This document shows, piece by piece, positions 1-19,350 of a stretch of DNA of 22,611 nucleotides. Source of the stretch: a virus. Its lineage: Duplodnaviria > Heunggongvirae > Uroviricota > Caudoviricetes. The first letter of the stretch is position 1, and each line of letters begins with the position of its first letter. Below the pieces are notes generated by a model. That model made no database searches. It was given only the letters and a program-made list of their open reading frames with translations, and was not told the origin of the DNA. A program made the translations under genes and the position numbers. The stretch lies in the IMG/VR virus record IMGVR_UViG_2687453449_000006. The stretch is one strand, 5' to 3'.

Positions 1-276
1 TTACCGACTGCGGCCTGAGTTTTTTAAGTGACGTAAAATCGTGTTGAGGCCAACGCCCATAATGCGGGCAGTTGCCCGGCATCCAACGCCATTCATGGCC
101 ATATCAATGATTTTCTGGTGCGTACCGGGTTGAGAAGCGGTGTAAGTGAACTGCAGTTGCCATGTTTTACGGCAGTGAGAGCAGAGATAGCGCTGATGTC
201 CGGCGGTGCTTTTGCCGTTACGCACCACCCCGTCAGTAGCTGAACAGGAGGGACAGCTGATAGAAACAGAAGCCAC
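1..276 (-). CDS. insA: IS1 InsA transposition regulator (91 aa)
   Basis: Translation [43 protein letters not shown]... matches IS1 InsA as I recall it, including the zinc-finger CPSC...CSHC motif; ATG at 276. Confidence 0.9.
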
Positions 277-331
277 TGGAGCACCTCAAAAACACCATCA
301 TACACTAAATCAGTAAGTTGGCAGCATCACC
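1..331 (-). mobile_element. IS1 insertion sequence, partial (left end with terminal inverted repeat; remainder lies outside the window)
   Basis: Positions 320-331 are the reverse complement of the IS1 terminal repeat GGTGATGCTGCC; the insA frame runs from 276 to the window edge, which coincides with the insA stop codon. insB and the other terminus are not in the window. Confidence 0.9.
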
Positions 332-534: not shown

Positions 535-1284
535 TCAGTCAATTGTTTTGTTTATTCCATCTGTGACGCCGATTATTTTCTCAAAATAATGAGATGGCGT
601 GACACCATAATAATCTTTAAATGCACATATGAAATATGAAGTACTGTTATAGCCACATTTCTGGGCTACGACATTGATAGAATAAGAGTTTGAAGTTATG
701 AGTTTTTTTGCATACCTCATCCTAGTATCTCTCAATATTTCAGTAAATGACGTTCCTTCATCCCTTAATCTTTTTTTTATTAAACTTTCACTCGTATAAA
801 TCAATTCCGCAATATCTTTTAAATGCCATTGCCGCTCAATATTAAAACTGATTATTCCAGTAATTTTACAGGTAAATGTATTTATATTTGTTAGTATAAA
901 TGAATTTACACTTTCGCGTTTTTTGAACATGGCAAGTAAGGATATACATAGTCTTTCTTTTAACCAAAGGGAGTGTGAGTCTGCTATTTTAATCCCTTCA
1001 AACAGAGAAAAAACAAGCGATAATGGAGGTTCCTCTTCAGCAATATAGCCATTCTTATCAAGAGTAAATTTGCCAGGCAGCTCATTATTCACGTCGATAA
1101 AAAAGGATAAACATGTTTTCTTATCTATATCAACAATTCTTAGTTTAGAGGGGCATACTGGTAACTCCCTTCTAATTTTGTCGCTTACAATAAACAATGA
1201 ATTTTTTTTGAACGAGATAACTCTCCTGTTTATAATTAAATCAAATGATTGACAGATGAAAACTACGGAGCAAACATAATCCAT
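535..1284 (-). CDS. appY: AraC-family transcriptional regulator AppY (249 aa)
   Basis: 249-aa ORF with a true ATG at 1284; C-terminal AraC-type HTH (..[27 protein letters not shown]..); N-terminus [21 protein letters not shown] matches AppY as recalled; strongly AT-rich coding sequence. Confidence 0.88.
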
Positions 1285-1860
1285 CTTGCACCTATCATAA
1301 AATTAAAACAAGTTGATAGCAGTCAAATAACAACCAATTAAATACACAATCATAATCAGGATGATGTGCATTTATATTTTTATACACAAAATTATAGTTT
1401 GCAAATTTTAATAAATTTCATTTAAGATTAAATTATTATATGTATATTGTTTTTTATTCTAACGTATTTCAAAGTTACATTTTTCAACGCTTACTATACT
1501 TTTTATTAACATAAACTCACTACAACGCACCTGAAACCTCTTGCTATATATATGTCAACCGTTTGAATTTAAAATAAAAAGAGTATCATTTTTACTTGCA
1601 TTTCTTATCAAGTCACATTCAACAACAGTAAAAAAACATTATTAGAACCATTCAATTAACAAAAAACCAACATCCAGCTTGCTTAATTTTTCTTTATTAA
1701 ACGACATTGAAAATCAATTGATAAAATACATCTAAACAACCTTTTGGGGCGCAAAAGCATAACATCAAACAAACAAATAACACACCGAAAAAACTCACAA
1801 TTAATAACCTATGATATACATACTGTTTATTATGGTTGAATAAGCCACTCGATATCTGGT
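1285..1860 (-). promoter_or_regulatory. Long AT-rich upstream/leader region of appY (likely promoter and nucleoid-protein-bound region)
   Basis: About 575 bp of very AT-rich non-coding sequence with no credible ORF, directly upstream of the appY ATG; no specific promoter elements were mapped. Confidence 0.4.
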
Positions 1861-1959
1861 GCTACGGAAGTGTCCACACGGTTTAGCAGCACCCGATACT
1901 TTTTCCAGGCTTCCAGCAACGAGTTTTCTTCCTCCGTTGCATATACAGCTCACCTTTTT

Positions 1960-2253
1960 TCACCCACGATTAACCAACAGCCAGACCAGCAGACACGCCA
2001 CCACCGGCACAGCAAAATCCATCAGGCTTGCCACATCCCATGCACGTGTATCAAAACCGCCCCACCACGGCATATTCATTCGCTTGCCATGCCCGAACAT
2101 TTCGATCCAGCGATATTCTGCCTGGGTGTGTTCACGCGCAATGAAGAACGTACAACCGGCTATCGCCCCGTAAGCCCAGTTCCCGGTAAAAAGACCAATC
2201 AGTAGCTGCGCAGCCACAGCACAAAGCGCATGAAGGAAAGGTGTTATATCCAT
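1960..2253 (-). CDS. Small hydrophobic protein (97 aa), two predicted transmembrane segments; function unknown
   Basis: ATG at 2253 preceded by a strong Shine-Dalgarno (AAGGAGG, reverse complement of 2257-2263) and starting 11 nt after the stop of the upstream ORF; hydrophobic stretches ALCAVAAQLLIGLFTGNWAYGAIAGCTFFIA and LMDFAVPVVACLLVWLLV. Confidence 0.55.
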   Translation of the reverse strand: MDITPFLHALCAVAAQLLIGLFTGNWAYGAIAGCTFFIAREHTQAEYRWIEMFGHGKRMNMPWWGGFDTRAWDVASLMDFAVPVVACLLVWLLVNRG

Positions 2254-2263
2254 TACTCCTCCT

Positions 2264-2968
2264 TTATCCGATATCGCTTCGGGAAACGGATAACAACTTT
2301 AATTCTGACTCAAGTTCATCAACTCTTTCAGTCAGCTTCTGGATATGGTGAATCAGTGGAACAACCAGACGTTCGTACATTACACCTTCGGCAACAAGGC
2401 CATTGCTGGAAATAGCTTCAGGAGCATCATCTTCGTTAGCTGGTCGCCAGTGTACAAACTGAGGGGCAATTTCTCCTACTTCCTCGGCAATCAATCCGTA
2501 GAATCCCCAGTCACGCCTGTCATTTTCGCATTGCGACCTGTACCACACAGGGCGCATCCTGAAAATGAGATCGGCGTGCTCTGAATCTATCGTCTCTACT
2601 GAATGTTTATAGCGAATAGACGATGTTGACCGCAGTACAGACGAAATTGCAGGGTCAGGATTAAGATAAAGGTTTGCCGCCGCTGTAGTCGTGCCCAATC
2701 CCCACATATAAAACGCTTCACGGCCAGTCAACGGGTAAAAATCTCCACCATAACGACCGCTTTCCAGATCGTTCACTTCCAGTTTGTTTTTCAGCTTATT
2801 ATCAACTTCAGTTTTTGTGTATCTGGTGCTGATATCCTGCTTTGCACTGGTCATATCAGTCTGAAGCGTTGATACTTTTCCGTTAATTGAGGAAATATCT
2901 TCCTTAGTTTTACTGACATCTCCCTTTAGCGTGGTGATATCTCCTGGAATTACTGTCGATGTAGCCAT
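2264..2968 (-). CDS. Tail-fiber-like protein (234 aa) with a C-terminal intramolecular-chaperone (peptidase S74-like) domain
   Basis: ATG at 2968 with SD GAGGGAG; C-terminal region SSIRYKHSVETIDSEHADLIFRMRPVWYRS...FYGLIAEEVGEIAPQFVHW...MYERLVVPLIHHIQKLTERVDELESEL resembles the S-D-x-R-x-K ... GLIAQEV ... coiled-coil pattern of endosialidase-chaperone domains (from memory, not searched). Confidence 0.55.
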   Translation of the reverse strand: MATSTVIPGDITTLKGDVSKTKEDISSINGKVSTLQTDMTSAKQDISTRYTKTEVDNKLKNKLEVNDLESGRYGGDFYPLTGREAFYMWGLGTTTAAANLYLNPDPAISSVLRSTSSIRYKHSVETIDSEHADLIFRMRPVWYRSQCENDRRDWGFYGLIAEEVGEIAPQFVHWRPANEDDAPEAISSNGLVAEGVMYERLVVPLIHHIQKLTERVDELESELKLLSVSRSDIG

Positions 2969-2977
2969 TTGTCTCCC

Positions 2978-3259
2978 TCACATCCAGCCACGAAGTTGAT
3001 GCTCAACAACAACCGCGTATTTATCGAATATTGACGATTTTTTTACATCATTAATGATGCGCACGTTTACAAAATATCCGTCTTCCTTAACACATACCGG
3101 TTCGCCATCTTCAGTCAGTTCTCCGGTTTCTTTGTACACGTTACCTATCACGTCAATAAGAATATCATCCTGCATCGACTCGTCATCATAATAGCCAATA
3201 CTCTCCATAAAGGCCGAAAAGTCGGCCCTGTCTGCAAATTTGAGTGTTAAATCTTTCAT
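2978..3259 (-). CDS. Acidic hypothetical protein (93 aa), translationally coupled to stf
   Basis: ATG at 3259-3257 overlaps the stf stop TGA at 3258-3256 (ATGA overlap); SD-like GGGGAGAG upstream; no recognisable family. Confidence 0.5.
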   Translation of the reverse strand: MKDLTLKFADRADFSAFMESIGYYDDESMQDDILIDVIGNVYKETGELTEDGEPVCVKEDGYFVNVRIINDVKKSSIFDKYAVVVEHQLRGWM

Positions 3260-5601
3260 TTAATACTCTCCCCCATTTGCGCATCAGTTAATTCTTTATG
3301 CCAGATACGCAGATTACGGATATGACCAAAAAGATGATACTCCCCATTAGTGCCCTGCCCTCCAATTCGCAATACTGCCCGTGGAACAATTGAAGTCCAT
3401 GTTGTTTTTGCCGCAACAGATAATTCACCATTACATACGGCCTGAACATCTCCATCAGCGCCACAACGGAAGCCTGAAATGATTTTCCTCTGGGTTGTTG
3501 CCACATATTTATTACACCCTCCCATAGAAATAAAAGGAGAACCGGCATCAGAGAAATTATTACCACGGAATCCATGCGTGAACAGACCATTTTCCTGATA
3601 ATCTTTAACATTAAAGATTAATGGTGATTTGCTGGGAGGGATATCCCAGTTTTTATTAACTTCAACAAGAGCACTGAATGGTAATCGGTGAATATTGTTT
3701 CTTACAGGTATTGTCACCATGTCGCTGGAGCGAGTGCCAGGAGCCCCTTCAGTAATGATAAATGACGTCCTGTACGACCCAATCTCCGCCTGAGGCATCG
3801 CAATATCTAACGTAGAGCCATTGGGGATAATACTGATTCCAGGCATCGCCAGGATTTCAAATCTTGAGCTGATTATCATTTCCGCATCTGCAAAAAGAGT
3901 GGCGGTAAACAACCACCATTCACCGACTCTTTCTGCCGTCACCGTCACATTATTTCCATGAACAACATTTCCCGTAACAGGATCCAGAACTGCATCTGAA
4001 TGAAAAACAAACGCACCATTATCAGACATTTTTCCGAACCTTGCACGACACCGGGAATTATCACTTTTCGTCAGACACGATATCGTCGTATAAGAACCTG
4101 CCGGGCAGGTGTAAGCATCATTCGTGTTTACAGCAATTGCCTGATATCCTTGTGCTGTCGGATTTTCATTAATAACAGTTATCCTTCCATAGTTAAACCC
4201 CTTATCACTGTCGAACGACTCAACAGACACACTACCCGTGTTATTCCATGCTTCTGGTGTATTTGAATTTCTGAAATAGTTTGTTCTCTGTCCTTCAATC
4301 AGCAAACCTTCTCGTTCAAATCGCGGTTCGTCAACTTCAGCAACGGTTAATACACCTGATTTATTAATGTATGTTGCACCTGATGCGCGTTTGAAGCTAA
4401 CAACCTTATCGGATGGCATTTTAATAACATCATCACCTACGGTTATTTGCTTATAACCAGGCGAAAAGCCAGCAAGCATATCCAGTGAATCGTTAAACGG
4501 TATCCACACATCAGGCAGTGGCTGTAAGACATATTTATACGGCTCTGCTGCCTGGCTTGCATACTCTCTGGCTGCATCCTCACTTGCTTTAGCTGCTGTC
4601 TGGCTTGCTGCCGATGCTTGCGCCGAGTTCGCCGCTGCAGTCTCGCTTGTCTTTGCATTGGTTTCACTGGTTTTTGCAGCTTTTTGACTGTTTGCTGATG
4701 CAGTGGCAGAAGCAGCCGCCGCACTTGCAGAACCAGCTGCAGCACTCTCGCTTTCGGCTGCTGCATCCTGACTGCTTTTCGCCGCAGTTTCGCTGGCTTT
4801 GGCATTTGTTTCGCTGGTCTTCGCTGCCGTCTGGCTGGACTTTGCGTTAGTTTCGCTCGTCTTCGCTGCTTTCTGGCTGTTAGCCGCAGCAGTTGCTGAT
4901 CCAGCTGCTGCAGTCGCAGAACCGGCTGCCGCGCTCTCGCTTTCGGCTGCTGCATTCTGGCTATTTTTCGCCGCAGTTTCACTGGCTTTGGCATTCGTTT
5001 CGCTGGTTTTCGCTGCCGTCTGGCTGGACTTTGCGTTGGTTTCGCTCGTCTTTGCGGCTGTCTCGCTGTTTTTCGCGTTGGTTTCTGATTTTTTGGCTGC
5101 TGTCGCGGAGTTTGCCGATGCAGTCTGCGAGGACGCTGCCGCCTGTGCGCTGTTAGCTGCATTCGTTTCTGAGGTTTTCGCCGCGTTCTTCGATGATGCC
5201 GCTGCAGTTTCGGATTTCTTTGCCGCCGCTGCGCTCTGAGAGGCGGCTTCGGCGTTGCGTGCCGCTTCTTCCACCATTGCCTCAAAACGACGCAATGCCT
5301 CCGGCATGACATCATCTTCCGTCATGGCACCGAGAAAATCATTCAGCGTACCTGGTCTGGAACCTTCATAGACGGTAATGGTTCCGGCATGTGAAGGCGG
5401 AAAACCTTCAACCAGCAGGGTGACGCTGTACTGGCCATGCTCAACATCCATGCTGTAACGCCCGGCTTCATCCGGATTTTCAGAGGCCACCGTGTTCACC
5501 AGTACCGTGGTGCTGTTACGCTTTGCCTTCAGTTGAATAGTGCAGTTCTGTATTGGTTTTCCCGCACCATCTTTCAGCACACCTGAAATCTGTACTGCCA
5601 T
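3256..5601 (-). CDS. stf: Side tail fiber protein, lambda Stf-like N-terminus, Ala/Ser/Thr-rich repetitive shaft, LamG/lectin-like C-terminal domain
   Basis: N-terminus MAVQISGVLKDGAGKPIQNCTIQLKAKRNSTTV...GRYSMDVEHGQYSV...FPPSHAGTITVYE matches lambda Stf as recalled; true ATG at 5601-5599 with SD GGAGTG (the track's M at 5607 is a GTG). C-terminal ...LRIGGQGTNGEYHLFGHIRNLRIWHKELTDAQM is typical of LamG-like jelly-roll domains. Confidence 0.85.
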   Translation of the reverse strand: MAVQISGVLKDGAGKPIQNCTIQLKAKRNSTTVLVNTVASENPDEAGRYSMDVEHGQYSVTLLVEGFPPSHAGTITVYEGSRPGTLNDFLGAMTEDDVMPEALRRFEAMVEEAARNAEAASQSAAAAKKSETAAASSKNAAKTSETNAANSAQAAASSQTASANSATAAKKSETNAKNSETAAKTSETNAKSSQTAAKTSETNAKASETAAKNSQNAAAESESAAAGSATAAAGSATAAANSQKAAKTSETNAKSSQTAAKTSETNAKASETAAKSSQDAAAESESAAAGSASAAAASATASANSQKAAKTSETNAKTSETAAANSAQASAASQTAAKASEDAAREYASQAAEPYKYVLQPLPDVWIPFNDSLDMLAGFSPGYKQITVGDDVIKMPSDKVVSFKRASGATYINKSGVLTVAEVDEPRFEREGLLIEGQRTNYFRNSNTPEAWNNTGSVSVESFDSDKGFNYGRITVINENPTAQGYQAIAVNTNDAYTCPAGSYTTISCLTKSDNSRCRARFGKMSDNGAFVFHSDAVLDPVTGNVVHGNNVTVTAERVGEWWLFTATLFADAEMIISSRFEILAMPGISIIPNGSTLDIAMPQAEIGSYRTSFIITEGAPGTRSSDMVTIPVRNNIHRLPFSALVEVNKNWDIPPSKSPLIFNVKDYQENGLFTHGFRGNNFSDAGSPFISMGGCNKYVATTQRKIISGFRCGADGDVQAVCNGELSVAAKTTWTSIVPRAVLRIGGQGTNGEYHLFGHIRNLRIWHKELTDAQMGESIK
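4560..5260 (-). repeat. In-frame tandem repeats inside stf (189-bp / 63-codon unit, about 2.5 copies, with 42-bp sub-repeats)
   Basis: The motif ctctcgctttcggctgctgca occurs at 4745 and 4934 (offset 189 bp) and the surrounding ~105 nt are near-identical; protein repeats AAKTSETNAKSSQTAAKTSETNAKASETAAK...AAAESESAAAGSA. Confidence 0.8.
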
Positions 5602-5659
5602 ATTCACTCCACAAATAAAAAAGGCGCCATTTCTGGCGCCCGTATCTGGGTTATAAAAT

Positions 5660-8506
5660 TCAGCTAATCATGATGCCTGCAGTGGCTTTCTTCATCACCA
5701 CAACCAGCAAATCGCTGATACTTGCTGTGGGATACCAGCCATTTACCAGCCATGCCGATACAGAAAATTCCAGTGTCATTACACCACTGCCTGCAGGCAT
5801 ATCAATAACACCCGTATATATCAGCGTATTATCCAGAGCCGTTCGGTTATAAATTTCAGCACCGTTTTTTCGTACTATCAGACGGCATGAGGAGTAGATA
5901 TCAGTATGATCTTGCTCATGTTTAGCGCCACTGAATGCCACCGCCGGAATAACAATTTGCCGGTCAAACGGCTGATCGTCATAAACCCTGACGGTAATGG
6001 TCCCTGATGGCCACCGCTCCGGTGCACGGGAGTCCCGGGGGAAAGCTTTGCCCACTGTTTTAACGAGATCGCCTTCAATCTGGTTCGCGGACAGTTTTCC
6101 CAGAACCCGGCAGTTCTCGTTAATCGTGACGTTGTTGAGCGTCCCGGAGTTCGCATTCACGTTACCGCTAATATCGGCATTTTTCGCCGTCAGCCGCCCG
6201 TCCGGTGTCAGGGAAAATGCCGGAGGATTACCGCCGCTGGTAATGGTGGGAGCCGTCAGATATTTCAGGAACACTTCGTTCATGAATATCTGATCGCCCT
6301 GACCAACAAACATCGGCTTTGTGTTGCCATTCGCAGGATTAATCATCGCAATCCTGTCCGCCGCCAGCAGCACCTGACTCTGCATACCGTCAGGGGTATT
6401 CTCAATACCGGCACCAATACCCGCGATATAAAGGCGTCCGTCCTGCATCTGCTGCAGCTTCACAGCCCACATGCTGTTCAGGTTATTATTTGTATCAACC
6501 TGAACCTTCTGTATCTGCTGGATTGCCGCACTCTGGTCTTCCAGTTTCTTATTGACGGTCTGCGTGATTTCATTACTGACATCCGTGATGGACGTTCTGA
6601 TTTCCGCCAGGTCAGGCGCAAGCTGACCGTTATCAATCTGCGTCCACAACTCCTGAGCCAGATGGGTTTTCCCTATCTCTCCTTTGAAAAAATTCAGATA
6701 GCCGGATGCATCATCACTCGGCTGGCCAACAGCCTCCACGAATGCCGATTTGCCAACGGTGTTCACACTGCGGATGTAAAAATAATAATCATGGCCCGGT
6801 TTGATATTGATACTGGCGGCTATCCAGTACAGCGCCGTGCCAAGATAGCGTGCTGTGGTTTCAACCTGCCTGATATCCGCAATCCGCTTTTCCGAGAACC
6901 AGAACTCAAACTGTACCGTCGGATCATAAACCGCAAGATGCGGCGTGGCGGTTATCTGAAAATACCCCGGTGTCAGCTCAATCTGCGACGGCGCTGCCGG
7001 TGCGGCAATCCGGAACGATACCGACGCCGGCTCGCCCTGCTGCCCCCACGCATTTACTGCCCGGACTGTCAGCCTGTAGTTCCCCAGAGCCAGTTGTGTG
7101 AAGCGGTAAGTGGTTTCCGTCGTCCGGGCCGTGCTGACCAGTCGCTCACGGCCGTCATCCGCTGCCACGGTCAGGCGAAGCAGGAAGCTCACGCCCTTCA
7201 CCACCTTCGGCGTATCCCAGCGGGCCAGCACCTGGTATTCCCCGCTGTCTGCGGTGACTTCTGCGGTCAGGTGCTGCACCGCTGGCGGCGTGACACCATT
7301 TACCGTGCCGCTCTGGTCGCCGTCAAAGTGCGCCCCGTTATCCACGATGGCCTCTTTTTCCGGTACATGCTGCACGGCGGTGATGGCATACGTGCCGTCG
7401 TCGTTCTCACGGATACTCACGCAGCGGAACAGGCGCTGGCGCAACGTCGGCAGCTTCAGCCCCCATACGCTGTATTCAGCAACGCCGTCAGGAACACGGC
7501 TCACTTTCACCTTCACGCCGTCGGTGACGGACTGAACCTCCACGCTGACCGGACTCCCCTGCCCGTCAACCAGGCTTATCAGCGTGGTGCCGGAAGATGG
7601 CAGCGTGATTTCACGGTCGAGCGTCAGCGTCCGGGTCTGGCTGTTTACCGCCAGCACGCGCCCGCCGGTGCGGATACCGGCATAGTCATCATCGCAGATT
7701 TCAATGACATCGCCCGGTACATGGCGAAGCCCTTCGGCACCCACGCTGAAGTCCACGGTCTGCGTTTCCAGCAGCTCCGTTTTAATCAGCCACAGCCCGG
7801 CGCGGTGTGCCTGCCCCCGGCTGGTACAGCCAAAGGCATCCATCTTCGTGACGTTACGACCGTAACGGAGAATGGCCTGCGTATCTTCAACAAGCTCTGT
7901 CGCCGTCTCCCAGCCGTTATTCGGGTCAATCCAGTTCACCTCAACGGCATTATGGCGGTCCTTCAGGGCGCTGAAGCTGTAGCGGAACGGCGCGCCATCA
8001 TCCGGCATCACCACATTACTGCGGTTATAGGTCCACACCTTATCTGATGGTCGGTCCTGCACGAACGTCAGCGTCTGCCCGTTCCATACCGGCATACAGC
8101 GCATCGCCGAGCAGAAATCACTGAGCACATCCCACGCCTTACGCTGCGTGGTCAGGTAGGCATTACAGGTGATGCGCGGCTCCGTGCCGCCAAAACCGTC
8201 CGGCACTGACTGGTCGCAGTACTGGCCGATGACATACAGCGCCCATTTATCCACATCCGCCGCACCAAGACGTTTCCCCATGCCGTAGCGCGGGTGGGTC
8301 AGCATATCCCACAGACACCAGGCCGGGTTGTTGCTGTATGCCGGCTTAAACGTTCCGTCCCAGATACCGCTGTATTGCCGCGTCTGCGGGTTATAGTTCG
8401 ACGGCACCTGCAGAATGCGCCCGCGAAGATGATAATTACGGCTCACCTGCTGGCTGCCGAACTGCTCCGAGTCCACCTGCACGCCGACCAGTGCCGTGTT
8501 CGGGTA
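5660..8506 (-). pseudogene. J: Tail tip / host specificity protein J, N-terminally truncated (C-terminal ~948 codons retained)
   Basis: Translation (..[41 protein letters not shown]... to ...[14 protein letters not shown]...) is collinear with lambda J as recalled. The frame is closed by a stop at 8507-8509 and has no in-frame ATG at its 5' end (first codon in the track is a GTG at 8482). Confidence 0.85.
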
Positions 8507-9011
8507 TCAGTTCATCCAGCGCGGCTGCTTTGTTCATGGCTTTGATGATATCCCGTTTCAGGAAATCAACATGTCGGTTTTCCAGTTCCGGAAAACGCCG
8601 CTGCACCGACAGGGGGATCCCGTCGAGAATACTGGCAATTTCACCTGCGATCCGCGACAGCACGAAAGTACAGAATGCGGTTTCCACCACTTCAGCGGAG
8701 TCTCTGGCATTTTTCAGCTCCTGTGCGTCGGCCTGCGCACGCGTAAGTCGATGGCGTTCGTACTCAATAGTCCCTGGCTGGAGATCTGTCTCGCTGGCCT
8801 GCCGCAGTTCTTCAACTTCCCGGCGCAGCTTTTCGTTCTCAATTTCAGCATCCCTTTCGGCATACCATCTTATAACGGCGGCAGAGTCATAAAGCACCTC
8901 ATTACCCTTGCCACCGCCTCGCAGAACGGGCATTCCCTGTTCCTGCCAGTTCTGAATGGTACGGATACTCGCACCGAAAATGTCAGCCAGCTGCTTTTTG
9001 TTGACTTCCAT
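8436..9011 (-). CDS. nohD: Terminase small subunit Nu1 homolog, C-terminally truncated and fused to 23 out-of-frame codons of J sequence (191 aa)
   Basis: ATG at 9011; residues 1-168 ([46 protein letters not shown]...[14 protein letters not shown]) match lambda Nu1 including the N-terminal winged HTH; after ...CTGATACC (about 8503) the sequence switches to J-derived DNA. Confidence 0.85.
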
Positions 9012-9260
9012 TGTTCATTCCACGGCCAAAAACAGAGAAAGGAAACGACAGAGGCCCAAAAGCTCGTTTTCAGCACCTGTCGTTTCCTTTCTTTTCAGGG
9101 GGTATTTTAAATAAAAACATTAAGTTACGACGAAGAAGAACGGAAATGCCTTAAACCGGAAAATTTTCATAAATAGCGAAAACCCGCGAGGTCGCCGCCC
9201 CGTAACCTGTCGGATCGCCGGAAAGGACCCGCAAAATGATAATAATTATCATCTACATGT
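9012..9260 (-). promoter_or_regulatory. Lambda-type cos region (cosB with R-site/IHF-site-like elements, cosN at 9189-9200, cosQ-side sequence to about 9260)
   Basis: The minus strand reads ...CCGGCGATCCGACAGGTTACGGGGCGGCGACCTCGCGGGTTTTCGCTATTTATGAAAATTTTCCGGTTTAAGG...GAAAGGAAACGACAGGTGCTGAAA..., almost identical to the lambda cohesive-end region as recalled; the 12-nt GGGCGGCGACCT is the reverse complement of 9189-9200. Confidence 0.8.
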
Positions 9261-9399
9261 CACAACGTGCATCTACGCCATCAAACCACGTCAAATAATC
9301 AATTATGACGCAGGTATCGTATTAATTGATCTGCATCAACTTAACGTAAAAACAACTTCAGACAATACAAATCAGCGACACTGAATACGGGGCAACCTC

Positions 9400-9594
9400 A
9401 TGTCAACTAAGAACAGAACCCGCAGAACAACAACCCGCAACATCCGCTTTCCTAACCAAATGATTGAACAAATTAACATCGCTCTTGAGCAAAAAGGGTC
9501 TGGGAATTTCTCAGCCTGGGTCATTGAAGCCTGCCGTCGGAGACTAACGTCAGAAAAGAGAGCATATACATCAATCCAGAGTGATGATGAATAA
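9400..9594 (+). CDS. ylcI: Small basic protein YlcI-like (64 aa), possible ribbon-helix-helix fold
   Basis: ATG at 9400; MSTKNRTRRTTTRNIRFPNQMIEQINIALEQKGSGNFSAWVIEACRRRL has a basic N-terminus followed by a beta-strand/helix/helix pattern; matches the DLP12 ylcI product as recalled. Confidence 0.7.
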   Translation: MSTKNRTRRTTTRNIRFPNQMIEQINIALEQKGSGNFSAWVIEACRRRLTSEKRAYTSIQSDDE

Positions 9595-9954
9595 ACATCC
9601 CGGTTTCTTCCACCATCGCACCGGAAAAGCGACTATGAGGGTAACCCTGCGTCTGTCAGCACAGTAAAACCCGGTGTGCATCGTTTTTGATTATTCCCGC
9701 ACACTCACGCAGAAGGAATTCCCCGTCGGGCTACGGTCATGGTTAATGCGGGAATACGGCGACGATACAGCGCAGCTAAAAGGGTAATGGACAGAAAGAG
9801 CGGTTTATTTCATTCCACAGGATTCTGAGTGCCCCCCCTCCTCCAATAGGCTGAGCATCCACCTATATAGTTTTAATTTTCATCAATCCATTTAACTATC
9901 GTTTAATTGTTGTCACATAGGATTCTGCCGTTTTTAACAATGCAGGATAATAAG

Positions 9955-10248
9955 ATGAAAAAAATGTTGTTTTCTGCCGCTCTGGCAATGCTTATTACAG
10001 GATGTGCTCAACAGACGTTTACTGTTGGAAACAAACCGACAGCAGTAACACCAAAGGAAACCATCACCCATCACTTCTTCGTTTCGGGAATTGGACAGGA
10101 GAAAACTGTTGATGCAGCCAAAATTTGTGGCGGCGCAGAAAATGTTGTTAAAACAGAAACCCAGCAAACATTCGTAAATGGATTGCTCGGTTTTATTACT
10201 TTAGGCATTTATACTCCGCTGGAAGCGCGTGTGTATTGCTCACAATAA
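9955..10248 (+). CDS. borD: Bor-family outer-membrane lipoprotein (97 aa)
   Basis: ATG at 9955 (the track start at 9907 is upstream, in frame); signal peptide plus lipobox MKKMLFSAALAMLITGC; sequence matches lambda Bor/DLP12 BorD as recalled. Confidence 0.9.
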   Translation: MKKMLFSAALAMLITGCAQQTFTVGNKPTAVTPKETITHHFFVSGIGQEKTVDAAKICGGAENVVKTETQQTFVNGLLGFITLGIYTPLEARVYCSQ

Positions 10249-10258
10249 TTGCATGAGT

Positions 10259-10276
10259 TGCCCATCGATATGGGCA
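10259..10276. terminator. Short hairpin between convergent bor and Rz (possible bidirectional terminator)
   Basis: TGCCCAT-cgat-ATGGGCA inverted repeat in the 31-bp gap between the bor stop (10246-10248) and the Rz stop (10280-10282). Confidence 0.35.
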
Positions 10277-10279
10277 GCT

Positions 10280-10741
10280 CTATCTGCACTGCTCATTAAT
10301 ATACTTCTGGGTTCCTTCCAGTTGTTTTTGCATAGTGATCAGCCTCTCTCTGAGGGTGAAATAATCCCGTTCAGCGGTGTCTGCCAGTCGGGGGGAGGCT
10401 GCATTATCCACGCCGGAGGCGGTGGTGGCTTCACGCACTGACTGACAGACTGCTTTGATGTGCAACCGACGACGACCAGCGGCAACATCATCACGCAGAG
10501 CATCATTTTCAGCTTTCGCATTAGCTAACTCCTTCGTGTATTTTTCATCCAGTGCAGCAACATCACGCTGGCGCATCTGCATGTCAGTAATTGCCGCGTT
10601 CGCCAGCTTCAGTTCTCTGGCATTTTTGTCGCGCTGGGCTTTGTAGGTAATGGCGTTATCACGGTAATGATTAACAGCCCATGACAGGCAGACGATGATG
10701 CAGATAACCAGAGCGGAGATAATCGCGGTTACTCTGTTCAT
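10280..10741 (-). CDS. rzpD: Rz i-spanin (153 aa)
   Basis: True ATG at 10741-10739 overlapping the endolysin stop (ATGA); N-terminal TM segment, coiled-coil, C-terminal ...YINEQCR; the track's M at 10753 is a GTG. Confidence 0.88.
10339..10521 (-). CDS. rzoD: Rz1 o-spanin lipoprotein embedded in the +1 frame of Rz (60 aa)
   Basis: ATG at 10521; lipobox LVVVGC and proline-rich stretch [15 protein letters not shown]; entirely nested inside rzpD. Confidence 0.85.
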
Positions 10742-11235
10742 TGCTGACCCCACAAACAGATTTCACGCTCAATCTCACGACGAGTCATGAGACCTTTCCA
10801 TTGCTTACCGCCAGCATATGTCCAGCGACGTAGCTGATCACATGCGCCTTTGATATCGCCCTGGTTTATTTTGCGAAGAAGCGTCGATGTTCTGAAATTG
10901 CCAGCGCCCACGTTGTAAACGAACGAGTAAAGAGCGCCGCGCGTTGTTTCCGGTATATCAACTTTTATGTACGGGTTAATTTGTCTGGCGACCGTGGCAA
11001 GGTCTTTATTCAGGAGGGCTTTGCATTCTGCTTTGGTATACGTTTTACCGAGCATGATGTCTTTTCCTGTATGCCCGTGACATACAGTCCATACACCAAC
11101 AATATCTTTGTATGGTATGTAGCTGACACCTTCCAGACCATCGTTACCACTTGGGCCAGTGATTAACACTGATGCTATAGCAATTGCTCCGCCACCAATA
11201 GCAGCAGCAACGGCTTTTCGTAATGATGGAGGCAT
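10738..11235 (-). CDS. rrrD: SAR endolysin (phage 21 R-type lysozyme, 165 aa)
   Basis: ATG at 11235; N-terminal signal-arrest-release segment [20 protein letters not shown] followed by a lysozyme domain; matches R21/RrrD as recalled. Confidence 0.9.
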
Positions 11236-11450
11236 TATTCACCTCTCGCAGCCTTGCGCTTATCTTCTTTAATCTTGAAATAAAGGTTTGTCAGGTACGT
11301 CAGCAGGCCAAATACCAGGCTACCCAGCACACCTATTGCTGCCCACTGTGAGGGCGTGACTTTATCGAGCAGCTGTAAAAACCAGTAACCGGCACTACCT
11401 GCTGAGGTGCCATAGGCGACACCCGTTGTTAACTTATCCATGGATTTCAT
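11235..11450 (-). CDS. essD: Pinholin S21-type holin/antiholin with dual-start motif (71/68 aa)
   Basis: ATG at 11450 and a second ATG three codons later (MKSMDK...), two TM segments, charged C-terminus [13 protein letters not shown]; the track's longer 86-aa form begins at a TTG. Confidence 0.88.
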
Positions 11451-12038
11451 AACCCCACCTCGCAGACAAAGCGGGTGTAAATTGAGGGAATACAACGTAT
11501 CGCAAAAAAGCAGAAACGTAACAGACTCGGAGTCAGTGAATAACTCAGGTATTGAGTTATCAGCTAATATCGAGACTCAAAAAATGGAAAAACCAGCTCG
11601 ACGGCGGGTTTAAGCTGTGTGACGAAGTAACCACTCTTAACAGCATAACCAATTTTTTACGTACGTAAACCACTGAATGATATTTATGAGAATGCTACCG
11701 AGTGTTCAAAACACCACCACAAATATATAAGAAAACCTCAACAAATAACCAATAAATAATTTCCGGCGTTATTTTTAGTTGATTTAAATTAAACCACTGA
11801 ATTATAGAACCCCCATAAATAACAGCCATTAATATAAATTAGCTAATAGGTTTATTTTTGTTCAAATAAGAGCCATAAATAGGTTTCGATAGAAAAAGTT
11901 CAGATAAAAATAGAGATCTACTTCACAAATTAAATGAGAAACTAAAACTTACATCTTGAAATAATCACATTGATTAGATGAATATTTATCGCGCAGTGAC
12001 ATCATTTTTTAATAATAGTTCAAAAAAAAGGGCTCACG

Positions 12039-13121
12039 ATGAAAAAATTAACAGTGGCAATTTCTGCTGTAGCTGCATCAGTACTGATGGCGATGTCTGC
12101 TCAGGCAGCTGAAATTTATAATAAAGACAGTAACAAGCTGGATCTGTACGGGAAAGTTAATGCCAAGCACTACTTTTCCTCTAACGATGCAGATGATGGT
12201 GATACTACTTATGCCCGTCTTGGCTTCAAAGGTGAAACCCAAATCAACGATCAACTGACTGGTTTCGGTCAGTGGGAATATGAATTCAAAGGCAACCGCG
12301 CTGAATCTCAAGGTTCCTCCAAAGACAAAACCCGTCTTGCATTTGCAGGCCTGAAATTCGGTGACTACGGCTCAATCGATTACGGCCGTAACTACGGTGT
12401 AGCATACGACATCGGTGCGTGGACTGACGTTCTGCCAGAATTCGGTGGCGATACCTGGACCCAAACAGATGTGTTCATGACTGGTCGCACCACTGGTGTT
12501 GCAACCTATCGTAACAACGACTTCTTTGGTCTGGTCGATGGCCTGAACTTTGCTGCTCAGTATCAGGGTAAAAATGACCGCACTGACGTAACTGAAGCCA
12601 ATGGTGATGGTTTCGGTTTCTCCACTACTTATGAGTATGAAGGATTCGGCGTGGGTGCAACCTATGCTAAATCAGATCGCACTGACGGTCAGGTCGCCTA
12701 TGGTAAGAGCAAATTCAATGCCTCCGGCAAAAATGCGGAAGTATGGGCTGCAGGCCTGAAATATGATGCGAACAATATCTATCTGGCTACCACATATTCT
12801 GAAACTCAGAATATGACCGTTTTTGGTAATAACCATATTGCAAACAAAGCACAAAACTTTGAAGCAGTAGCACAATATCAGTTTGACTTCGGTCTGCGAC
12901 CATCTGTTGCTTACCTTCAGTCAAAAGGTAAAGACCTTGGTGTTCATGGTGACCGAGACTTAGTCAAGTATGTCGATGTCGGTGCTACTTACTACTTTAA
13001 TAAAAACATGTCCACTTTTGTTGATTACAAAATCAACTTAATTGACGATAGTAAGTTTACCAAAACAGCTGGTATTGATACCGACGACATCGTCGCTGTA
13101 GGTCTGGTGTATCAGTTCTAA
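12039..13121 (+). CDS. nmpC: Outer-membrane general porin NmpC (OmpC/OmpF family), apparently intact (360 aa)
   Basis: ATG at 12039; signal peptide [30 protein letters not shown]; porin signature with C-terminal ...VAVGLVYQF; uninterrupted 360-codon frame. Confidence 0.9.
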
Positions 13122-13257
13122 TCTGATTACGAAAAAGATATGTTGCGGGAGGCTTTGCCTCCCCAACATATAAGTGGCTCCCTCAAGCCACTTCCTTTAG
13201 AAGCACAACCTTGCTTCTAACTATATAAACCTTCTGTTATATATTACCCTTTATTTT

Positions 13258-13290
13258 TGGGGGCGTCTCAACGCCCCATTTTTAATAATT
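13258..13290. terminator. Rho-independent terminator, probably bidirectional (nmpC 3' end / late-promoter region)
   Basis: TTTTTGGGGGCGTCTCAACGCCCCATTTTT: 6-bp GC-rich stem flanked by T-runs on the plus strand and A/T on the complement; additional hairpins at about 13143-13165, 13170-13195 and 13198-13222. Confidence 0.55.
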
Positions 13291-13310
13291 TTTAGTAAAC
13301 AATTGGCATA

Positions 13311-13694
13311 TTAATTAGAGTTATTAACAACGATATCCATCTCTAACCGGATATCTAATGCCATTAACATCCCTTCAATTATGCCCTCAGCCTTCTGTAA
13401 CCTTTTCCCGATATAACCATCAGAGCAGCAATGCTTACCTGCCAGTGACATGAATGTCATACCGACTACATAATAATCTACTAATAAATCATGCAAATCG
13501 CTGTTGTTCTTTTTCAGACGGGCCATGCACCCGCAAATGATCATCGCGTCATCGTCACAACATTGTGGGCGAGATTTTACTTTTGAAGGAATTAATCCCT
13601 TAAAACCGGCGGCAATGGACGACCAGGTCACATCTTCATGATTATTAGCCGCCCACGCTCCCCAACGCTCAAGAACCATCTGAATATCACGCAT
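13311..13694 (-). CDS. quuD: Late-gene antiterminator Q (127 aa)
   Basis: ATG at 13694 ([22 protein letters not shown]...); Cys-rich zinc-binding region [16 protein letters not shown]; the track's M at 13709 is a TTG. Confidence 0.85.
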
Positions 13695-13779
13695 CAACTT
13701 ACTCCACAAAACTCAGACCAGAACGCCAATTACAAGCAAAAATCAACAAAACAGTATTAGTTGATTGTTATCTCTGACT

Positions 13780-13920
13780 TCATACTCCTGCTCCTGTCAG
13801 TGTTTTGGCGTAATTCTTCAGTATTCGGTAATCGGTCAAAACAGAACCGGGGAAACGATATAAGCGCAGGCGCATCCAGCGGTGGCGAAGAAGTTCTGCC
13901 ATATAAAACTCAAACATCAT
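13780..13920 (-). CDS. ylcG: Small protein YlcG-like (46 aa)
   Basis: Hand-translated [46 protein letters not shown]; its ATG (13920-13918) overlaps the rusA stop (13919-13917); sits between rusA and Q as ylcG does in DLP12. Confidence 0.5.
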
Positions 13921-14279
13921 TCATCTCCCTGTTCAGTGATGGTCAGTTCCAGCTTTCCACCTTTGACAACCGGCATCTTCACAACGCGGTAATCAACGAC
14001 CTGAGCATCATCCAGCCAGAAACCTGCTTTGGTGAGTGCGTCAAAAGCGGCCTTTTGTAGATTATCCAGGTCACGGCGACGGCGATCCGGCATGTGACAC
14101 TCAATGCGGATTTTCACAGGCATAGCCAGGCCGATATCCAGCATTGCGTTTTTAATGATTCGGGCGACGTTTTCGCGGTATGCCTGCCCCTCTGCGCTGA
14201 TGTGCGTGCGCCCGCGATTATGGCGGTAATAGCGATTATTGCTCGGCGGCCAGGGTAATGTGATATTGTAGGTATTCAC
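13917..14279 (-). CDS. rusA: Holliday junction resolvase RusA (120 aa)
   Basis: [50 protein letters not shown]... matches RusA as recalled; the start is a GTG at 14279-14277 overlapping the ybcO stop. Confidence 0.88.
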
Positions 14280-14566
14280 GCCTTAATTACCCCCTCTTTC
14301 AGCCAGATAACCTGCGTTCTCGCCATACCTTCCAGCGCGCATTCTTTTGCATATCCAGCGTCAACAAAATGCGTGCGACGGTCGATCTCGTCGTGACAGG
14401 CAGAACATGCAATGGTGGCAATCAGGTCTGGCGGTTTGATACCGGTACCGCACAATCCAGCCAGCCGGATATGTGCCAGTACAGACGTTTCAGGATTGCC
14501 ATTACATACGCCAGGGATTCTTACCTGGCATTCCCGACCACGCGCTGCTTTTCTCAAATCAGCCAT
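14276..14566 (-). CDS. ybcO: NinG/DUF1364-like putative nuclease YbcO (96 aa)
   Basis: ATG at 14566 ([34 protein letters not shown]...CSACHDEID); Cys-rich; overlaps the ninE 3' end by 8 nt. Confidence 0.8.
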
Positions 14567-14729
14567 GATTCCTCCTTGCTGCCAGTCGCAACCATTTTTT
14601 ATCAACCAGGCTGGCGGTATATCCGAGCAGTGTTGGTATTTCGGATGGTTTCAGCTCAGGCTTACGCTTACGACGATTTGGTACTTTGTAGATGTGTCCG
14701 TTCATGACACGAATAAGCGGTGTAGCCAT
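14559..14729 (-). CDS. ninE: NinE-like small basic protein (56 aa)
   Basis: Hand-translated [56 protein letters not shown]; its ATG overlaps the ybcN stop (TAATG). Confidence 0.65.
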   Translation of the reverse strand: MATPLIRVMNGHIYKVPNRRKRKPELKPSEIPTLLGYTASLVDKKWLRLAARRNHG

Positions 14730-15184
14730 TACGCCTCCTGCTTATCACGCAGCAGCTGGAACTCGCAGCTCTGCGGAATAGTCAGGTGGCAGCCAATATT
14801 CATCGCCCAGGCTTCAACCTTACACAGGAAGACATACATCTCTCCGGTATCAAGGTCGGAGGTATGGCGTAACGACTGGATAGTGGTGATATCACCGGTT
14901 ACGACATCAACCAGGTCTTTGGTTTCATAACCGAGATATGTGTGTTTGAGAGCATCTTTTACCCAAGCTGGAGTGGCGAACGTTTTACCCCTGCTGATGA
15001 GGTATTCACTGATTTCGCTGTACCACATGTGGCTGAGTGCATTCTGGGAAAGACTGCGTTTCTCACGCCACGGTTTAAGCACCATGCGAAAGCATTTGCC
15101 CTCCTCCAGATAAGGCTGGATCTGCCGACCGATAGCGGTGAAGTTGCCGCGATGTAATTTGATGCCGTCTTGTGAGAGGTTCAC
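14729..15184 (-). CDS. ybcN: NinB-family recombination protein YbcN (151 aa)
   Basis: 151-codon frame beginning at a GTG (15184-15182) with SD GGAGGTG upstream; an in-frame stop lies immediately upstream so no ATG alternative exists; matches YbcN/NinB as recalled. Confidence 0.8.
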
Positions 15185-15307
15185 GCTTCACCTCCGCAGA
15201 GGTCAAACGCTAGATGCAAAGAATTGCAGGTGCATTTCTGCATCTGTGAAGGGAGAAGAGAGTTTGGATTGTATGTGCGCATAAACGTCCCCGTTTAGCG
15301 CAGAAGT

Positions 15308-15336
15308 CACCGGAGTTGTTCAGGCTCCGGTGACAT
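15308..15336. other. Perfect 10-bp inverted repeat (stable hairpin) in the ybcM-ybcN intergenic region
   Basis: GTCACCGGAG-ttgttcagg-CTCCGGTGAC, about 65-90 nt downstream of the ybcM stop; not followed by a U-run on the minus strand, so it is not a canonical intrinsic terminator. Confidence 0.4.
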
Positions 15337-15398
15337 AATTATGCCGTGTTGATTTCCCAAAATCAAAATCGATAGAATTGCTCCTTCTTAAAACACTT

Positions 15399-16196
15399 TT
15401 ACTCTCTGGAAGCTTTTCTTATCTCTCTTGGTGTTATATTAAAACGATTATGAAATCTTTCAGTAAAACGAGAAGGACACTTATAACCATTTTCTCTGGC
15501 AATCTCGCTTATAGGTTTTACCGTCGTTTGTATAGCAGACAACGCATTATTTAACCTCACATCGTCCAGTATACTTTGGAAACTTACCCCCTCGCTTGCT
15601 AGACGGCGATGTAATGTAGAAACAGAAATGTAGAGATATCGAGCAACCTTGTTTGCTGTCCATTTTGTGCCGGGTTCGGATAGCAGCAGGTTATAACAAC
15701 GACTTATCAATGATTGTTTACTATATGATAAAAGTAAATGATTAACATGATTCACTCCTAACGAAAGTAGAACGCCCATTGCTAAGTGCTCCTGAATTTT
15801 AGTTGAGAAGCCTCGGGAAACAGATGTTTTTAGTTGCTCCCAACAATATATTAACTCAGGATTCTGAGGTAAAAAGAAACTTGTTTTGTTACGTATTTGA
15901 TCAGTTACCGTATAAAGTTTTTGGAAACTCTCAATTAAATCAATGGGTAAGTAAAGCATTTCTGCAAGATAAAGCCCTGCTTCAGGATAATTCTCAATAT
16001 AAAATTCATAACCACAAGGAAATAATATTATTTGATTATTATCAACAGTTAAAGTATGCGTCTCCCAATTGATAACTTTCTTTCCCTGACGGATACGACA
16101 CAAAGCTGGCATAAGAGGCTTAACCCTATGAATCTCATGATGTTTATGCATCCGTATTTCTTCGATCTTTAAGTTAGTCTTACCTCTTGCCAGCAT
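15399..16196 (-). CDS. ybcM: AraC-family transcriptional regulator YbcM (265 aa)
   Basis: ATG at 16196; C-terminal AraC HTH (...[42 protein letters not shown]...); AT-rich. Confidence 0.85.
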
Positions 16197-16205
16197 ACTC
16201 TCACC

Positions 16206-16757
16206 CTACTTTATCTCATAAACTGGTGTTATCTCAGCGGTTGCGATTTTATTAGCATTAAGCATATAACCAACTAACGCTCCGCTGGAGTTAGAATCTA
16301 CAGGAATCTTTTCAGTTTTTAGAGCCCATACTTTAAACTGGTAATGATGTGGTTTATCTCCTTTAGGAGGACATGCGCCACCAAACCCAGCATAGCCAAA
16401 ATCATTTCGGCCTTGAACAGCACCAGTCGGCAGTTTTGTTCCATCACGTCTCCCTGCATCAACGGGCAAATATGTTACTGTTGCTGGAATATTAACAACA
16501 GTCCAATGCCACCAACCACTGCCTGTAGGTGCATCTGGATCATATACAGTTACGGCAAAGCTTTTGGTACCTTCAGGAACACCAGACCAGGTTAATGAGG
16601 GCGATGTATTACCACCTTCACACCCAAATCCAGAAAAGACATGAGACGTTGTAAGTTGCTCTCCTGTTTTTATTTCATTACTAGTGACCTGAAATGCTGC
16701 AGCCTGCGCAGAAAATGTTATGAATGCCAATACAGTTGAAACGATAAGTGTTTTCAT
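16206..16757 (-). CDS. ybcL: Periplasmic PEBP/RKIP-family protein YbcL (183 aa)
   Basis: ATG at 16757; signal peptide MKTLIVSTVLAFITFSAQA; PEBP-like core (...YDPDAPTGSGWWHW...GFGGACPPKGDKPHHYQFKVWAL...). Confidence 0.85.
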   Translation of the reverse strand: MKTLIVSTVLAFITFSAQAAAFQVTSNEIKTGEQLTTSHVFSGFGCEGGNTSPSLTWSGVPEGTKSFAVTVYDPDAPTGSGWWHWTVVNIPATVTYLPVDAGRRDGTKLPTGAVQGRNDFGYAGFGGACPPKGDKPHHYQFKVWALKTEKIPVDSNSSGALVGYMLNANKIATAEITPVYEIK

Positions 16758-19335: not shown

Positions 19336-19350
19336 AGCATATTCTTTCCT

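Follow-up and report, generated by a model that had tools for sequence, protein, structure and literature searches.

The described systems that stand closest to the locus studied here are the DLP12 prophage of Escherichia coli K-12, phage lambda with its cos site and small terminase subunit gpNu1, and the cos-type phage-inducible elements (PICIs), together with cosmids. Lambda has a packaging range of 38-52 kb, with a minimum of about 38 kb, and Little and Gottesman in 1971 and Sternberg and Weisberg in 1975 are said to have described packaging in situ that starts from a lambda prophage still in the chromosome and yields "doc" particles. Our locus would resemble that situation in that packaging would start from a single chromosomal cos and run unidirectionally into adjacent host DNA; the lambda prophage, however, supplies its own terminase and heads, whereas the DLP12 locus would need a helper. 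Termination of lambda packaging requires a second, downstream cosQ and cosN; otherwise translocation continues and the event is abortive (PMC4856287). The C-terminal part of the small subunit (TerS, residues 100-181) binds the large subunit, TerL (PMC6739421, PMC9611059).

For DLP12, the argU site is listed both in K-12 and in B (PMC3032704, Table 2). In K-12, the cos-nu1 region of DLP12 stimulates recombination between lambda and the prophage, with junctions that cluster at cos, and DLP12 nu1 is functional in lambda (PMC3945230). Ten of the 12 LTEE populations have lost a DLP12-like locus, which points to its dispensability (PMC4173774). Cos-type PICIs such as EcCICFT073, like cosmids, share with our locus a lambda-like cosQ and cosN, the lack of a terminase and a dependence on the helper's enzyme (PMC6739421). 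PICIs, however, excise, replicate, carry their own cosB and an Rpp adaptor, and are of a size that can be packaged, whereas at the present locus cosB is that of the helper, a replication module and Rpp are lacking, and the one cos is chromosomal.

Identity of the locus

We analyzed a 22,611-nt stretch of DNA (IMG/VR record IMGVR_UViG_2687453449_000006; hereafter the window). It carries the long-known defective lambdoid prophage DLP12 at its argU site, in the form of the E. coli B / C / ATCC 8739 lineage. Window positions 332-22611 match REL606 536929-559985 with 100% identity, save for an IS1 in the porin gene of REL606. The gene order common to the two is intD...ybcK-ybcL-ybcM-ybcN-ninE-ybcO-rusA-ylcG-quuD-porin-essD-rrrD-rzpD-iss-ylcI-nu1-J'-stf...appY, adjoining a tRNA-Arg gene. 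The integrase gene intD (21448-22611) lies at the prophage end, and the tRNA-Arg gene of REL606 is found 16 bp further out, which is the arrangement of a DLP12 integrated at argU. From the REL606 and K-12 annotations, the order also follows that of K-12 (ybcK...rusA-ylcG-quuD-nmpC-essD-rrrD-rzpD-bor-ylcI-nohD...appY). Megablast of the window against the K-12 segment aligns positions 8503-9611 at 97.9% and 9901-13046 at 91.1%, and the same block is labeled "cryptic prophage DLP12" in the K-12 annotation.

The truncated state of the locus is already present in RefSeq, which lists a "terminase small subunit" and a "tail tip protein, missing N-terminus," the J remnant (J') being marked "incomplete; missing N-terminus." The junction described below is ordinary, already known prophage decay. 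The comparison of the B and K-12 genomes by Studier et al. in 2009 reportedly covers the DLP12 region as well.

A deletion joins nu1 to the middle of J

Alignment with lambda shows that nucleotide homology to nu1 stops at window position 8503, equivalent to lambda 699 (lambda 699-1 corresponds to window 8503-9200 at 97.9% by blastn), and that homology to J starts at window 8509/8506, equivalent to lambda 16135/16138, with the J frame shifted relative to the nu1 frame. In a three-way alignment, the two homologies share a 4-bp microhomology, TACC, at 8503-8506 on the minus strand (lambda 696-699 in nu1 and 16138-16141 in J), or six of seven bases if TGnTACC is counted; a random join would show such microhomology of at least 4 bp with a probability of ~0.016. 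The deletion is equivalent to lambda bp 700-16137, about 15.4 kb, and a tblastn search of the window (E ≤ 1e-3) found no match to lambda A, W, B, C, D, E, FI, FII, Z, U, V, G, H, M, L, K, or I. The initial annotation had read the locus as a single deletion that joins nu1 directly to the middle of J, with the packaging, head and tail-shaft genes between them missing, and had named alignment to lambda as the means to define the breakpoint and any microhomology. Our alignments bear out this reading: The breakpoint is 699::16138, at TACC; the DNA left of 8503 is J, from residue 212 onward; residues 171-181 of Nu1 are replaced; and the window holds no homologue of the lambda genes from A to I.

A 120-bp junction-spanning probe has 100% matches in 65 of 5426 complete E. 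coli genomes, which thus carry exactly this junction, always in the chromosome; REL606, BL21(DE3), C41/C43, E. coli C, ATCC 8739, and ATCC 11303 are among them. Since these 65 genomes are independent, an assembly or chimera artifact is ruled out.

We propose that one illegitimate-recombination event at TACC in DLP12 joined nu1 to mid-J. Such an event would account for the loss of the final 11 codons of nu1, of all the genes listed above together with nu3 (after C) and T (after G), and of the first 211 codons of J. Still present are an intact lambda-type cos, an altered nu1 ORF, and a start-less J fragment followed by the tail-fiber module. With the remaining DLP12 genes, no self-packaging of DNA is possible.

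The chimeric Nu1 reading frame

The chimeric nu1 ORF (8436-9011, minus strand) encodes 191 amino acids. Its nu1-derived part (8503-9011) comprises Nu1 codons 1-170, with J supplying the last base of codon 170, and is followed by a novel tail of 21 codons and a TAA stop (8436-8501), in which J DNA is translated in the wrong frame. A chimeric product of 191 residues had been foreseen, but with a split into 168 lambda-like codons and a 23-residue tail; BLASTP and translation place it at 170 and 21. Lambda Nu1 (181 amino acids) aligns with residues 1-170 of the chimera with 167/170 identities (98%), and BLASTP gives no alignment to lambda Nu1 past residue 170.

The protein covers the whole of the Pfam family Phage_Nu1 (PF07471, 1-164 of 164; E = 2.9e-101, 336 bits), including the N-terminal wHTH. 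The native C-terminus is lost, its last 11 residues (171-181, GLLSEYIEQSG) being replaced by 21 unrelated ones. No homologue of gpA, the large terminase subunit, was detected adjacent to nu1 or elsewhere in the window (tblastn). The predicted product would thus keep the parts for DNA binding and self-association intact, with the extreme C-terminus swapped inside the region that binds the large terminase. PADLOC labels the chimeric Nu1 as mad1 (E = 1e-11); we reject the label, since the match is limited to the shared wHTH and lambda Nu1 and K-12 NohD match equally.

The cos site

A complete lambda-type cos region is located at 9020-9257 (minus strand). By alignment, it corresponds to lambda bp 48446-182, the segment on which pOER plasmids rely for a functional cos (PMC4856287). 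Over these 238 bp there are 11 differences from lambda, of which 10 are substitutions and the other is a 1-bp deletion between R2 and R1; a single difference from the deposited phage PhiR42_1, outside the sub-sites, so that cosQ, cosN, and cosB are identical in the two; and none from the DLP12 of strain 20AR0300. Infection assays make use of phages from this same PhiR panel (PMC13190303).

The arrangement of the sub-sites is that of lambda, with cosQ upstream, cosB between cosN and nu1, and lambda spacing. The packaging-termination element cosQ, which we take from the work of the Feiss laboratory to be the heptamer GGGTCCT, is found at 9224-9230 (minus strand) and is identical to lambda 48473-48479. 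On the same strand, cosB extends over 9035-9150, with R3 at 9150-9135, R2 at 9097-9081, R1 at 9051-9035, and I1 between R3 and R2; these R-site coordinates are approximate. R2 and R1 are identical to those of lambda, and R3 carries G54A, a variant common to PhiR42_1 and 20AR0300 DLP12. We judge the effect of G54A on R3 only by the fact that a deposited phage genome carries it too. The nicking site cosN (9187-9207, minus strand) is a single exact match in the window to the 21 nt of lambda, GGTTACGGGGCGGCGACCTCG, where none is expected by chance. The 12-nt cohesive-end sequence, GGGCGGCGACCT, is read at 9200-9189 on the minus strand, the overhang sequence being that given in PMC9611059.

The initial description of cosQ, cosN, and cosB as almost lambda-identical therefore holds. 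Measured against lambda cos and gpNu1, the locus has the same order and the same spacing to the nu1 ATG, save for the 1-bp deletion between R2 and R1; it differs from lambda in having no gpA partner and no second cos, in G54A at R3, and in the replaced C-terminus of Nu1. A promoter and terminator scan of positions 8300-9700 returned weak consensus matches only (three, versus 1.1 expected), the best promoter-like one just upstream of cosQ; we give these no weight.

Truncated J and the tail-fiber module

The 5′-truncated tail-tip (host-specificity) gene J′ occupies 5660-8506 on the minus strand and corresponds to lambda J residues 212-1132. As the initial annotation had estimated, the homology runs for about 948 codons with no ATG at its 5′ end: 948 codons are open from 8506 to 5663, with the stop at 5662-5660, and the gene has no proper start. 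In frame, a start codon first appears at 8482 (GTG), and no Shine-Dalgarno-like sequence was seen by eye 5′ of it. J′ has 79% identity to lambda J 212-1132, the match being nearly complete as far as about residue 810, with divergence in the C-terminal part that binds the receptor, and it contains the Pfam domains Phage-tail_3, Ig_J, Ig_J_second, Phage_Tail_Tip, and Ig_GpJ_C.

Over the full length of J′, the J gene of phage PhiR46_1 is 96.5% identical; the 97 differences include neither indels nor stops and give a dN/dS of 0.083. This low ratio and the lack of indels indicate that the divergence of J′ predates its inactivation and suggest that the deletion is recent. The fully open frame of 948 codons could hint at selection instead of recency. 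We set aside the dN/dS value as a sign of selection on J′ after the deletion, since all carriers are near-identical.

Downstream of J′ is a tail-fiber module (1844-5607, minus strand), delimited from the ORF list, the REL606 annotation, and blastn to lambda stf and tfa. It consists of an stf-like gene (3256-5607), small ORFs (2978-3259, 2264-2968, 1960-2253), and, near 1844-1941, a fragment of tfa.

Deletions in other DLP12 lineages

K-12 DLP12 (qsr′; nohD-aaaD-tfaD) has the same integration site, the same order from intD to ylcI, a lambda-type cos, and a loss of head and tail genes. Residues 1-170 of Nu1 agree with K-12 NohD at 168/170 positions and with the NohD of 20AR0300 at 170/170. K-12 differs in that it keeps a 181-residue NohD and 308 bp of A joined to tfa, with no J and no stf, whereas the B-type prophage has the chimeric Nu1, J′, and stf; neither could have given rise to the other. 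The endpoints of the deletions are lambda 699::16138 in the B type, 1018::22119 in K-12, and 2271::14804, together with a second deletion, in 20AR0300. Judged from these sequences, decay has been independent in the three lineages.

The 20AR0300 prophage shares nu1 and cos with the B type, along with the 3′ end of J and stf (99.9%). Between nu1 and J, it still contains 1.56 kb of A and a fragment across the K-I overlap. The sharing of both flanks, with remnants of A and of K-I between them, argues for an internal deletion of one ancestral prophage.

Probable consequences of the retained cos and alternative readings

In our view the locus is very probably a decay scar in DLP12, made by a single deletion at TACC. 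The structure is seen directly in the alignments; that the cos is probably still cleavable and that packaging would be non-productive is what we infer. Cleavage by a terminase supplied in trans is plausible, given the recombination data for K-12 DLP12 (PMC3945230) and the identity of the cos sub-sites with those of a deposited phage genome. Terminase from a lambda-type phage, or from DE3 in BL21(DE3), would probably bind cosB and nick cosN in the chromosome, and packaging would then run from nu1 through J′, stf, and appY to ompT. The window has one cosN and the element is about 21 kb long, so that two directly oriented cos sites some 38-52 kb apart are not available; in REL606, a search that allowed up to 3 mismatches and followed the packaging direction for 64.9 kb beyond cos found no second cosN-like site. 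Because there is no downstream cos, termination would fail, the packaging event would be abortive, and no normal transducing particle would form. The realistic outcome would be that terminase makes a double-strand break and thereby promotes homologous exchange between phage and prophage, which could involve the lysis genes, cos, nu1 in its 5′ part, and J/stf alleles. Abortive packaging, or the cos-stimulated recombination documented for K-12 DLP12, is the likely result.

The initial annotation had also proposed that a prophage keeping a packaging site but no packaging machinery could be packaged in trans. The first half of that statement stands; we regard it as very unlikely that a lambda-type helper packages and transduces the locus in the manner of a satellite or cosmid, and productive packaging by a helper is not plausible. 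A cosQ, cosN, and cosB that match a deposited phage genome are all present, a cloned lambda cos makes plasmids transferable by lambda, and lambda and phi80 mobilize cos-bearing PICIs (PMC6739421). Against these points stand the single cosN, where termination needs another downstream (PMC4856287), and the lack of a replication module. In that region, lambda homology is confined to 40041-40555 (the P C-terminus and ren), blast against lambda found no homology to the O gene or ori in the window, and RefSeq describes the P remnant as "replication protein P, missing N-terminus," so that an excised circle could not form concatemers. The sole HTH gene beside int is a truncated pseudogene, probably the remnant of an excisionase; the element, at about 21 kb, is below the lambda minimum of about 38 kb; and it has no Rpp-like or capsid-redirecting gene. 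A further alternative, which concerns the junction itself, is illegitimate recombination between two different phages, such as one entering the cell and one already resident there as a prophage. The best phage matches do differ on its two sides (nu1/cos 99.7% to PhiR42_1; J′ 96.5% to PhiR46_1), but such a difference is uninformative given lambdoid mosaicism, and with 20AR0300 pointing to one ancestral prophage that held the whole block, we find a two-phage origin highly improbable.

We give still less credence to a domesticated anti-phage function, in which the chimeric Nu1 would poison an incoming lambda-type terminase, the chromosomal cos would act as a decoy, or both. The intact wHTH and Pfam Nu1 domain, and an altered stretch that falls within the TerL-binding residues, are compatible with it, as is the ability of TerS look-alikes to block lambda packaging, as the Rpp proteins of PICIs do (PMC6739421). 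The cos and the 5′ part of nu1 have moreover been kept in three independently deleted DLP12 lineages, a survival that could be due to chance, the events being few, or to selection. Yet Nu1 is full-length and normal in K-12 and 20AR0300, so the chimeric tail is not conserved; the mad1 match is no more than the general wHTH resemblance; the ORF lies in a late operon and would be expected to be silent without Q-type antitermination; the locus has been lost repeatedly in the LTEE (PMC4173774); and the carriers are so nearly identical that selection cannot be judged from them. It is equally hard to credit that the lone cos and the nu1 5′ part were kept by selection as a "terminase trap," the chromosomal cos attracting the terminase of an infecting lambda-type phage and the B-type chimeric Nu1 forming dead-end complexes; were it so, phage yield would be lowered or recombination channeled.

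As a decay scar, the locus is mostly of slight significance, a textbook case of prophage decay in the heavily sequenced strains REL606, BL21(DE3), and E. coli C. The B, K-12, and 20AR0300 variants of DLP12 offer clean, datable, independent deletions of the microhomology type that could serve studies of prophage erosion. In BL21(DE3), the lambda-derived DE3 with its terminase genes coexists with the orphan DLP12 cos, so that breaks at DLP12 are conceivable when DE3 late genes are expressed; this is a practical curiosity rather than a discovery.

Identity of the locus and the nu1::J junction

Megablast searches of complete E. coli genomes, run with the region and with the whole window, matched window 332-22611 at 100% identity to positions 536929-559985 of E. 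coli B REL606; the sole difference is an IS1 within the REL606 porin gene. The equivalent K-12 block is annotated "cryptic prophage DLP12," and DLP12 at argU is tabulated for both K-12 and B (PMC3032704). The prophage occupies the minus strand of the window. From the int end, the REL606 annotation gives tRNA-Arg, intD and, further on, P', ren, emrE, ybcK, ybcL, ybcM, ybcN, ninE, ybcO, rusA, ylcG, quuD, porin, essD, rrrD, rzpD, iss(bor), ylcI, and "terminase small subunit," followed by "phage tail tip protein (incomplete; missing N-terminus)," tail-fibre genes, a tfa fragment, appY, and ompT.

At the nucleotide level, window 9200-8503 is homologous to nu1 (lambda 1-699) and homology to J begins at 8509/8506 (lambda 16135/16138), which bears out the deletion from nu1 to the middle of J described in the initial annotation. 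The alignment to lambda proposed there as a check places the breakpoint, and in a three-way alignment TACC is common to both parents at the join (TGATACC vs. TGCTACC). Since microhomology of at least 4 bp is expected at only ~1.6% of random joins, the junction looks like short-homology illegitimate recombination. The missing DNA amounts to 15,442 bp in lambda coordinates; as had been claimed, the genes between nu1 and J are gone, and nowhere in the window does tblastn detect a counterpart of lambda A, W, B, C, D, E, FI, FII, Z, U, V, G, H, M, L, K, or I.

A 120-bp junction-centred probe detects this B-type junction, in one piece at 100%, in 65 of 5426 complete genomes, among them REL606, BL21(DE3) and many derivatives, E. 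coli C, ATCC 8739, and ATCC 11303. The nu1::J junction is real, shared, and already annotated. Two other DLP12 lineages carry different deletions (blastn vs. lambda). The K-12 type joins lambda 1-1018 (full nohD and 308 bp of A, annotated "aaaD") to lambda 22119 (tfa); its junction probe matches at most 365 genomes, a maximum given that pieces lying apart can be merged into one match. The 20AR0300 type, found in four genomes with its junction probe, joins lambda 1-2271 (nohD and 1.56 kb of A) to 14804-15277 (the K-I overlap), from which a second deletion extends into J's 3' third. In nu1, cos, and the J 3' end/stf, this type matches the window at 99.9% or 100%. Because both other types keep A DNA that is absent from the B type, and lack J DNA that it keeps (window ~6705-8506), the B-type deletion is independent of theirs and goes back to a fuller common ancestor. 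The junction might instead have arisen between phages, but the intermediate content of 20AR0300 DLP12 makes internal deletion the more parsimonious reading.

Several minor features accompany the locus. Window 1-331 is part of an IS1, 100% identical to the REL606 IS1A copy, with a 91-aa ORF (1-276, minus strand) that is probably InsA; it lies downstream of appY, where REL606 runs on towards ompT. In the collection, no complete genome matches the window over its whole length; the source strain is therefore a relative of the B/C type that carries an additional IS1 downstream of appY. ATCC 8739 (Crooks; NZ_CP043852.1, 158545-180823) matches 99% of the window at 99.9% identity, nu1::J junction included; DLP12 at argU is absent from the published list for Crooks (PMC3032704, Table 2). 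The nmpC-type porin gene of DLP12 is intact in the window (12039-13121, plus strand; 360 aa); its K-12 and REL606 counterparts are disrupted by IS5 and IS1, respectively. A second deletion junction lies in the early region (19702-20314), between what is left of replication gene P, a C-terminal fragment (19702-19947, minus strand; with ren, lambda 40041-40555), and a DNA adenine methyltransferase fragment truncated at its 5' end (19946-20314, plus strand). The immunity region, O gene, and replication origin are missing. In BLR(DE3), a BL21 derivative (NZ_CP020368.1; equivalent to window 5149-22611), the match ends at ~5149 inside stf: J', the 5'-truncated J gene, is present, and the remaining stf, tfa, and appY are absent, in keeping with the ompT-minus deletion of BL21. 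BL21(DE3), with three matches to the junction probe against one in BL21, carries a second nu1/J copy that presumably lies in the DE3 prophage, in which case it would hold a lambda terminase gene set beside the orphan DLP12 cos.

The chimeric small terminase and the cos site

The ORF at 8436-9011 (minus strand) translates to 191 aa and is named "terminase small subunit" in RefSeq. The initial annotation was right that it is a chimera; its lengths (168 codons and a 23-residue tail) are corrected by BLASTP and translation to 170 and 21, residues 1-170 having 167/170 identities with lambda Nu1 and no alignment beyond. The ORF covers Pfam Phage_Nu1 end to end, and retains the wHTH and its central part; the change falls inside the TerL-binding region (residues 100-181) (PMC6739421, PMC9611059). 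Its partner gpA is not encoded in the window (tblastn, lambda A).

We aligned cos from the window, lambda, phage PhiR42_1, K-12 DLP12, and 20AR0300 DLP12. Identity with lambda is complete in the cosQ heptamer, over 21 bp spanning cosN (the 12-nt cohesive-end sequence among them), and in R2 and R1; R3 has a single transition (G54A). Over the equivalent of lambda 48446-182, which contains cosQ, cosN, and cosB (PMC4856287), 11 differences from lambda agree with the nearly lambda-identical cos reported from the sequence. Only one difference, upstream of cosQ, separates the window from PhiR42_1, a complete phage genome deposit (host ECOR13) with intact nu1 and A; phages of its PhiR panel serve in infection assays (PMC13190303). 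From this near-match we judge the window cos likely to be competent for lambda-type terminase.

The J remnant

Left of the junction, 948 open codons (J', 5660-8506, minus strand) align to lambda J residues 212-1132 and contain the Pfam domains of J, the receptor-binding domain at the C-terminus among them; RefSeq treats the remnant in some assemblies as a truncated pseudogene, in others as a CDS. Along its whole length, J' has 96.5% identity with J of phage PhiR46_1. None of the 97 differences is an indel or a stop, and dN/dS is 0.083, which indicates divergence built up while J was a working gene; the carriers of the junction are all near-identical, so these data carry no information on post-deletion selection. 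There is no sign of post-truncation decay of J', and on the scale of its divergence from PhiR46_1 J the deletion is, by this comparison, recent. The C-terminal part (5660-6700, minus strand) diverges from lambda J at about residue 812, with a 28-residue insertion, and matches J of PhiR46_1 and PhiR55_1, which suggests a receptor specificity unlike lambda's.

Packaging and recombination capacity

In lambda, packaging is initiated at cosN/cosB and terminated only by a downstream cos with cosQ and cosN; without one, translocation runs on and the packaging event fails (PMC4856287). The window has one cosN, and no second cosN-like site (≤3 mismatches) occurs in the 64.9 kb of REL606 downstream in the packaging direction, which leads from nu1 through J', appY, and ompT to the ent genes. 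The prophage (~21 kb) lacks the O gene and origin, has P only as its C-terminal part, and next to int carries nothing but a truncated HTH pseudogene that is probably left from an excisionase gene. A helper terminase could probably cut the window cos; with a single cosN, no replication module, and ~21 kb, a helper could not, as far as these features indicate, package the locus in a normal particle. The in-trans packaging first proposed is therefore overstated, although the structure on which it was built stands.

A satellite or cosmid-like element fails as a description for want of a replication module and a second cos, and its size is unsuitable. That the locus serves in defence or as a "terminase trap" is highly improbable: the PADLOC mad1 match is to the generic Nu1 wHTH and is equalled by lambda Nu1, a normal Nu1 persists in K-12 and 20AR0300, and the DLP12-like locus was lost in 10/12 LTEE populations (PMC4173774). 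The nu1::J feature is ordinary, already catalogued prophage decay.

K-12 DLP12 recombines with lambda ~100-fold more frequently than Rac or Qin do, cos adjoins half of the lambda x DLP12 junctions that were sequenced, and recombinants with DLP12 nu1 are viable (PMC3945230). The B type could still donate the first 509 bp of nu1 to lambda by cos-adjacent recombination as in K-12, and J'/stf, diverged at its receptor-binding end, would provide a second patch of homology. The stf-like gene (3256-5607) contains an internal direct repeat (4633-4881 vs. 4822-5070, minus strand; 84% identity, 189 bp offset).
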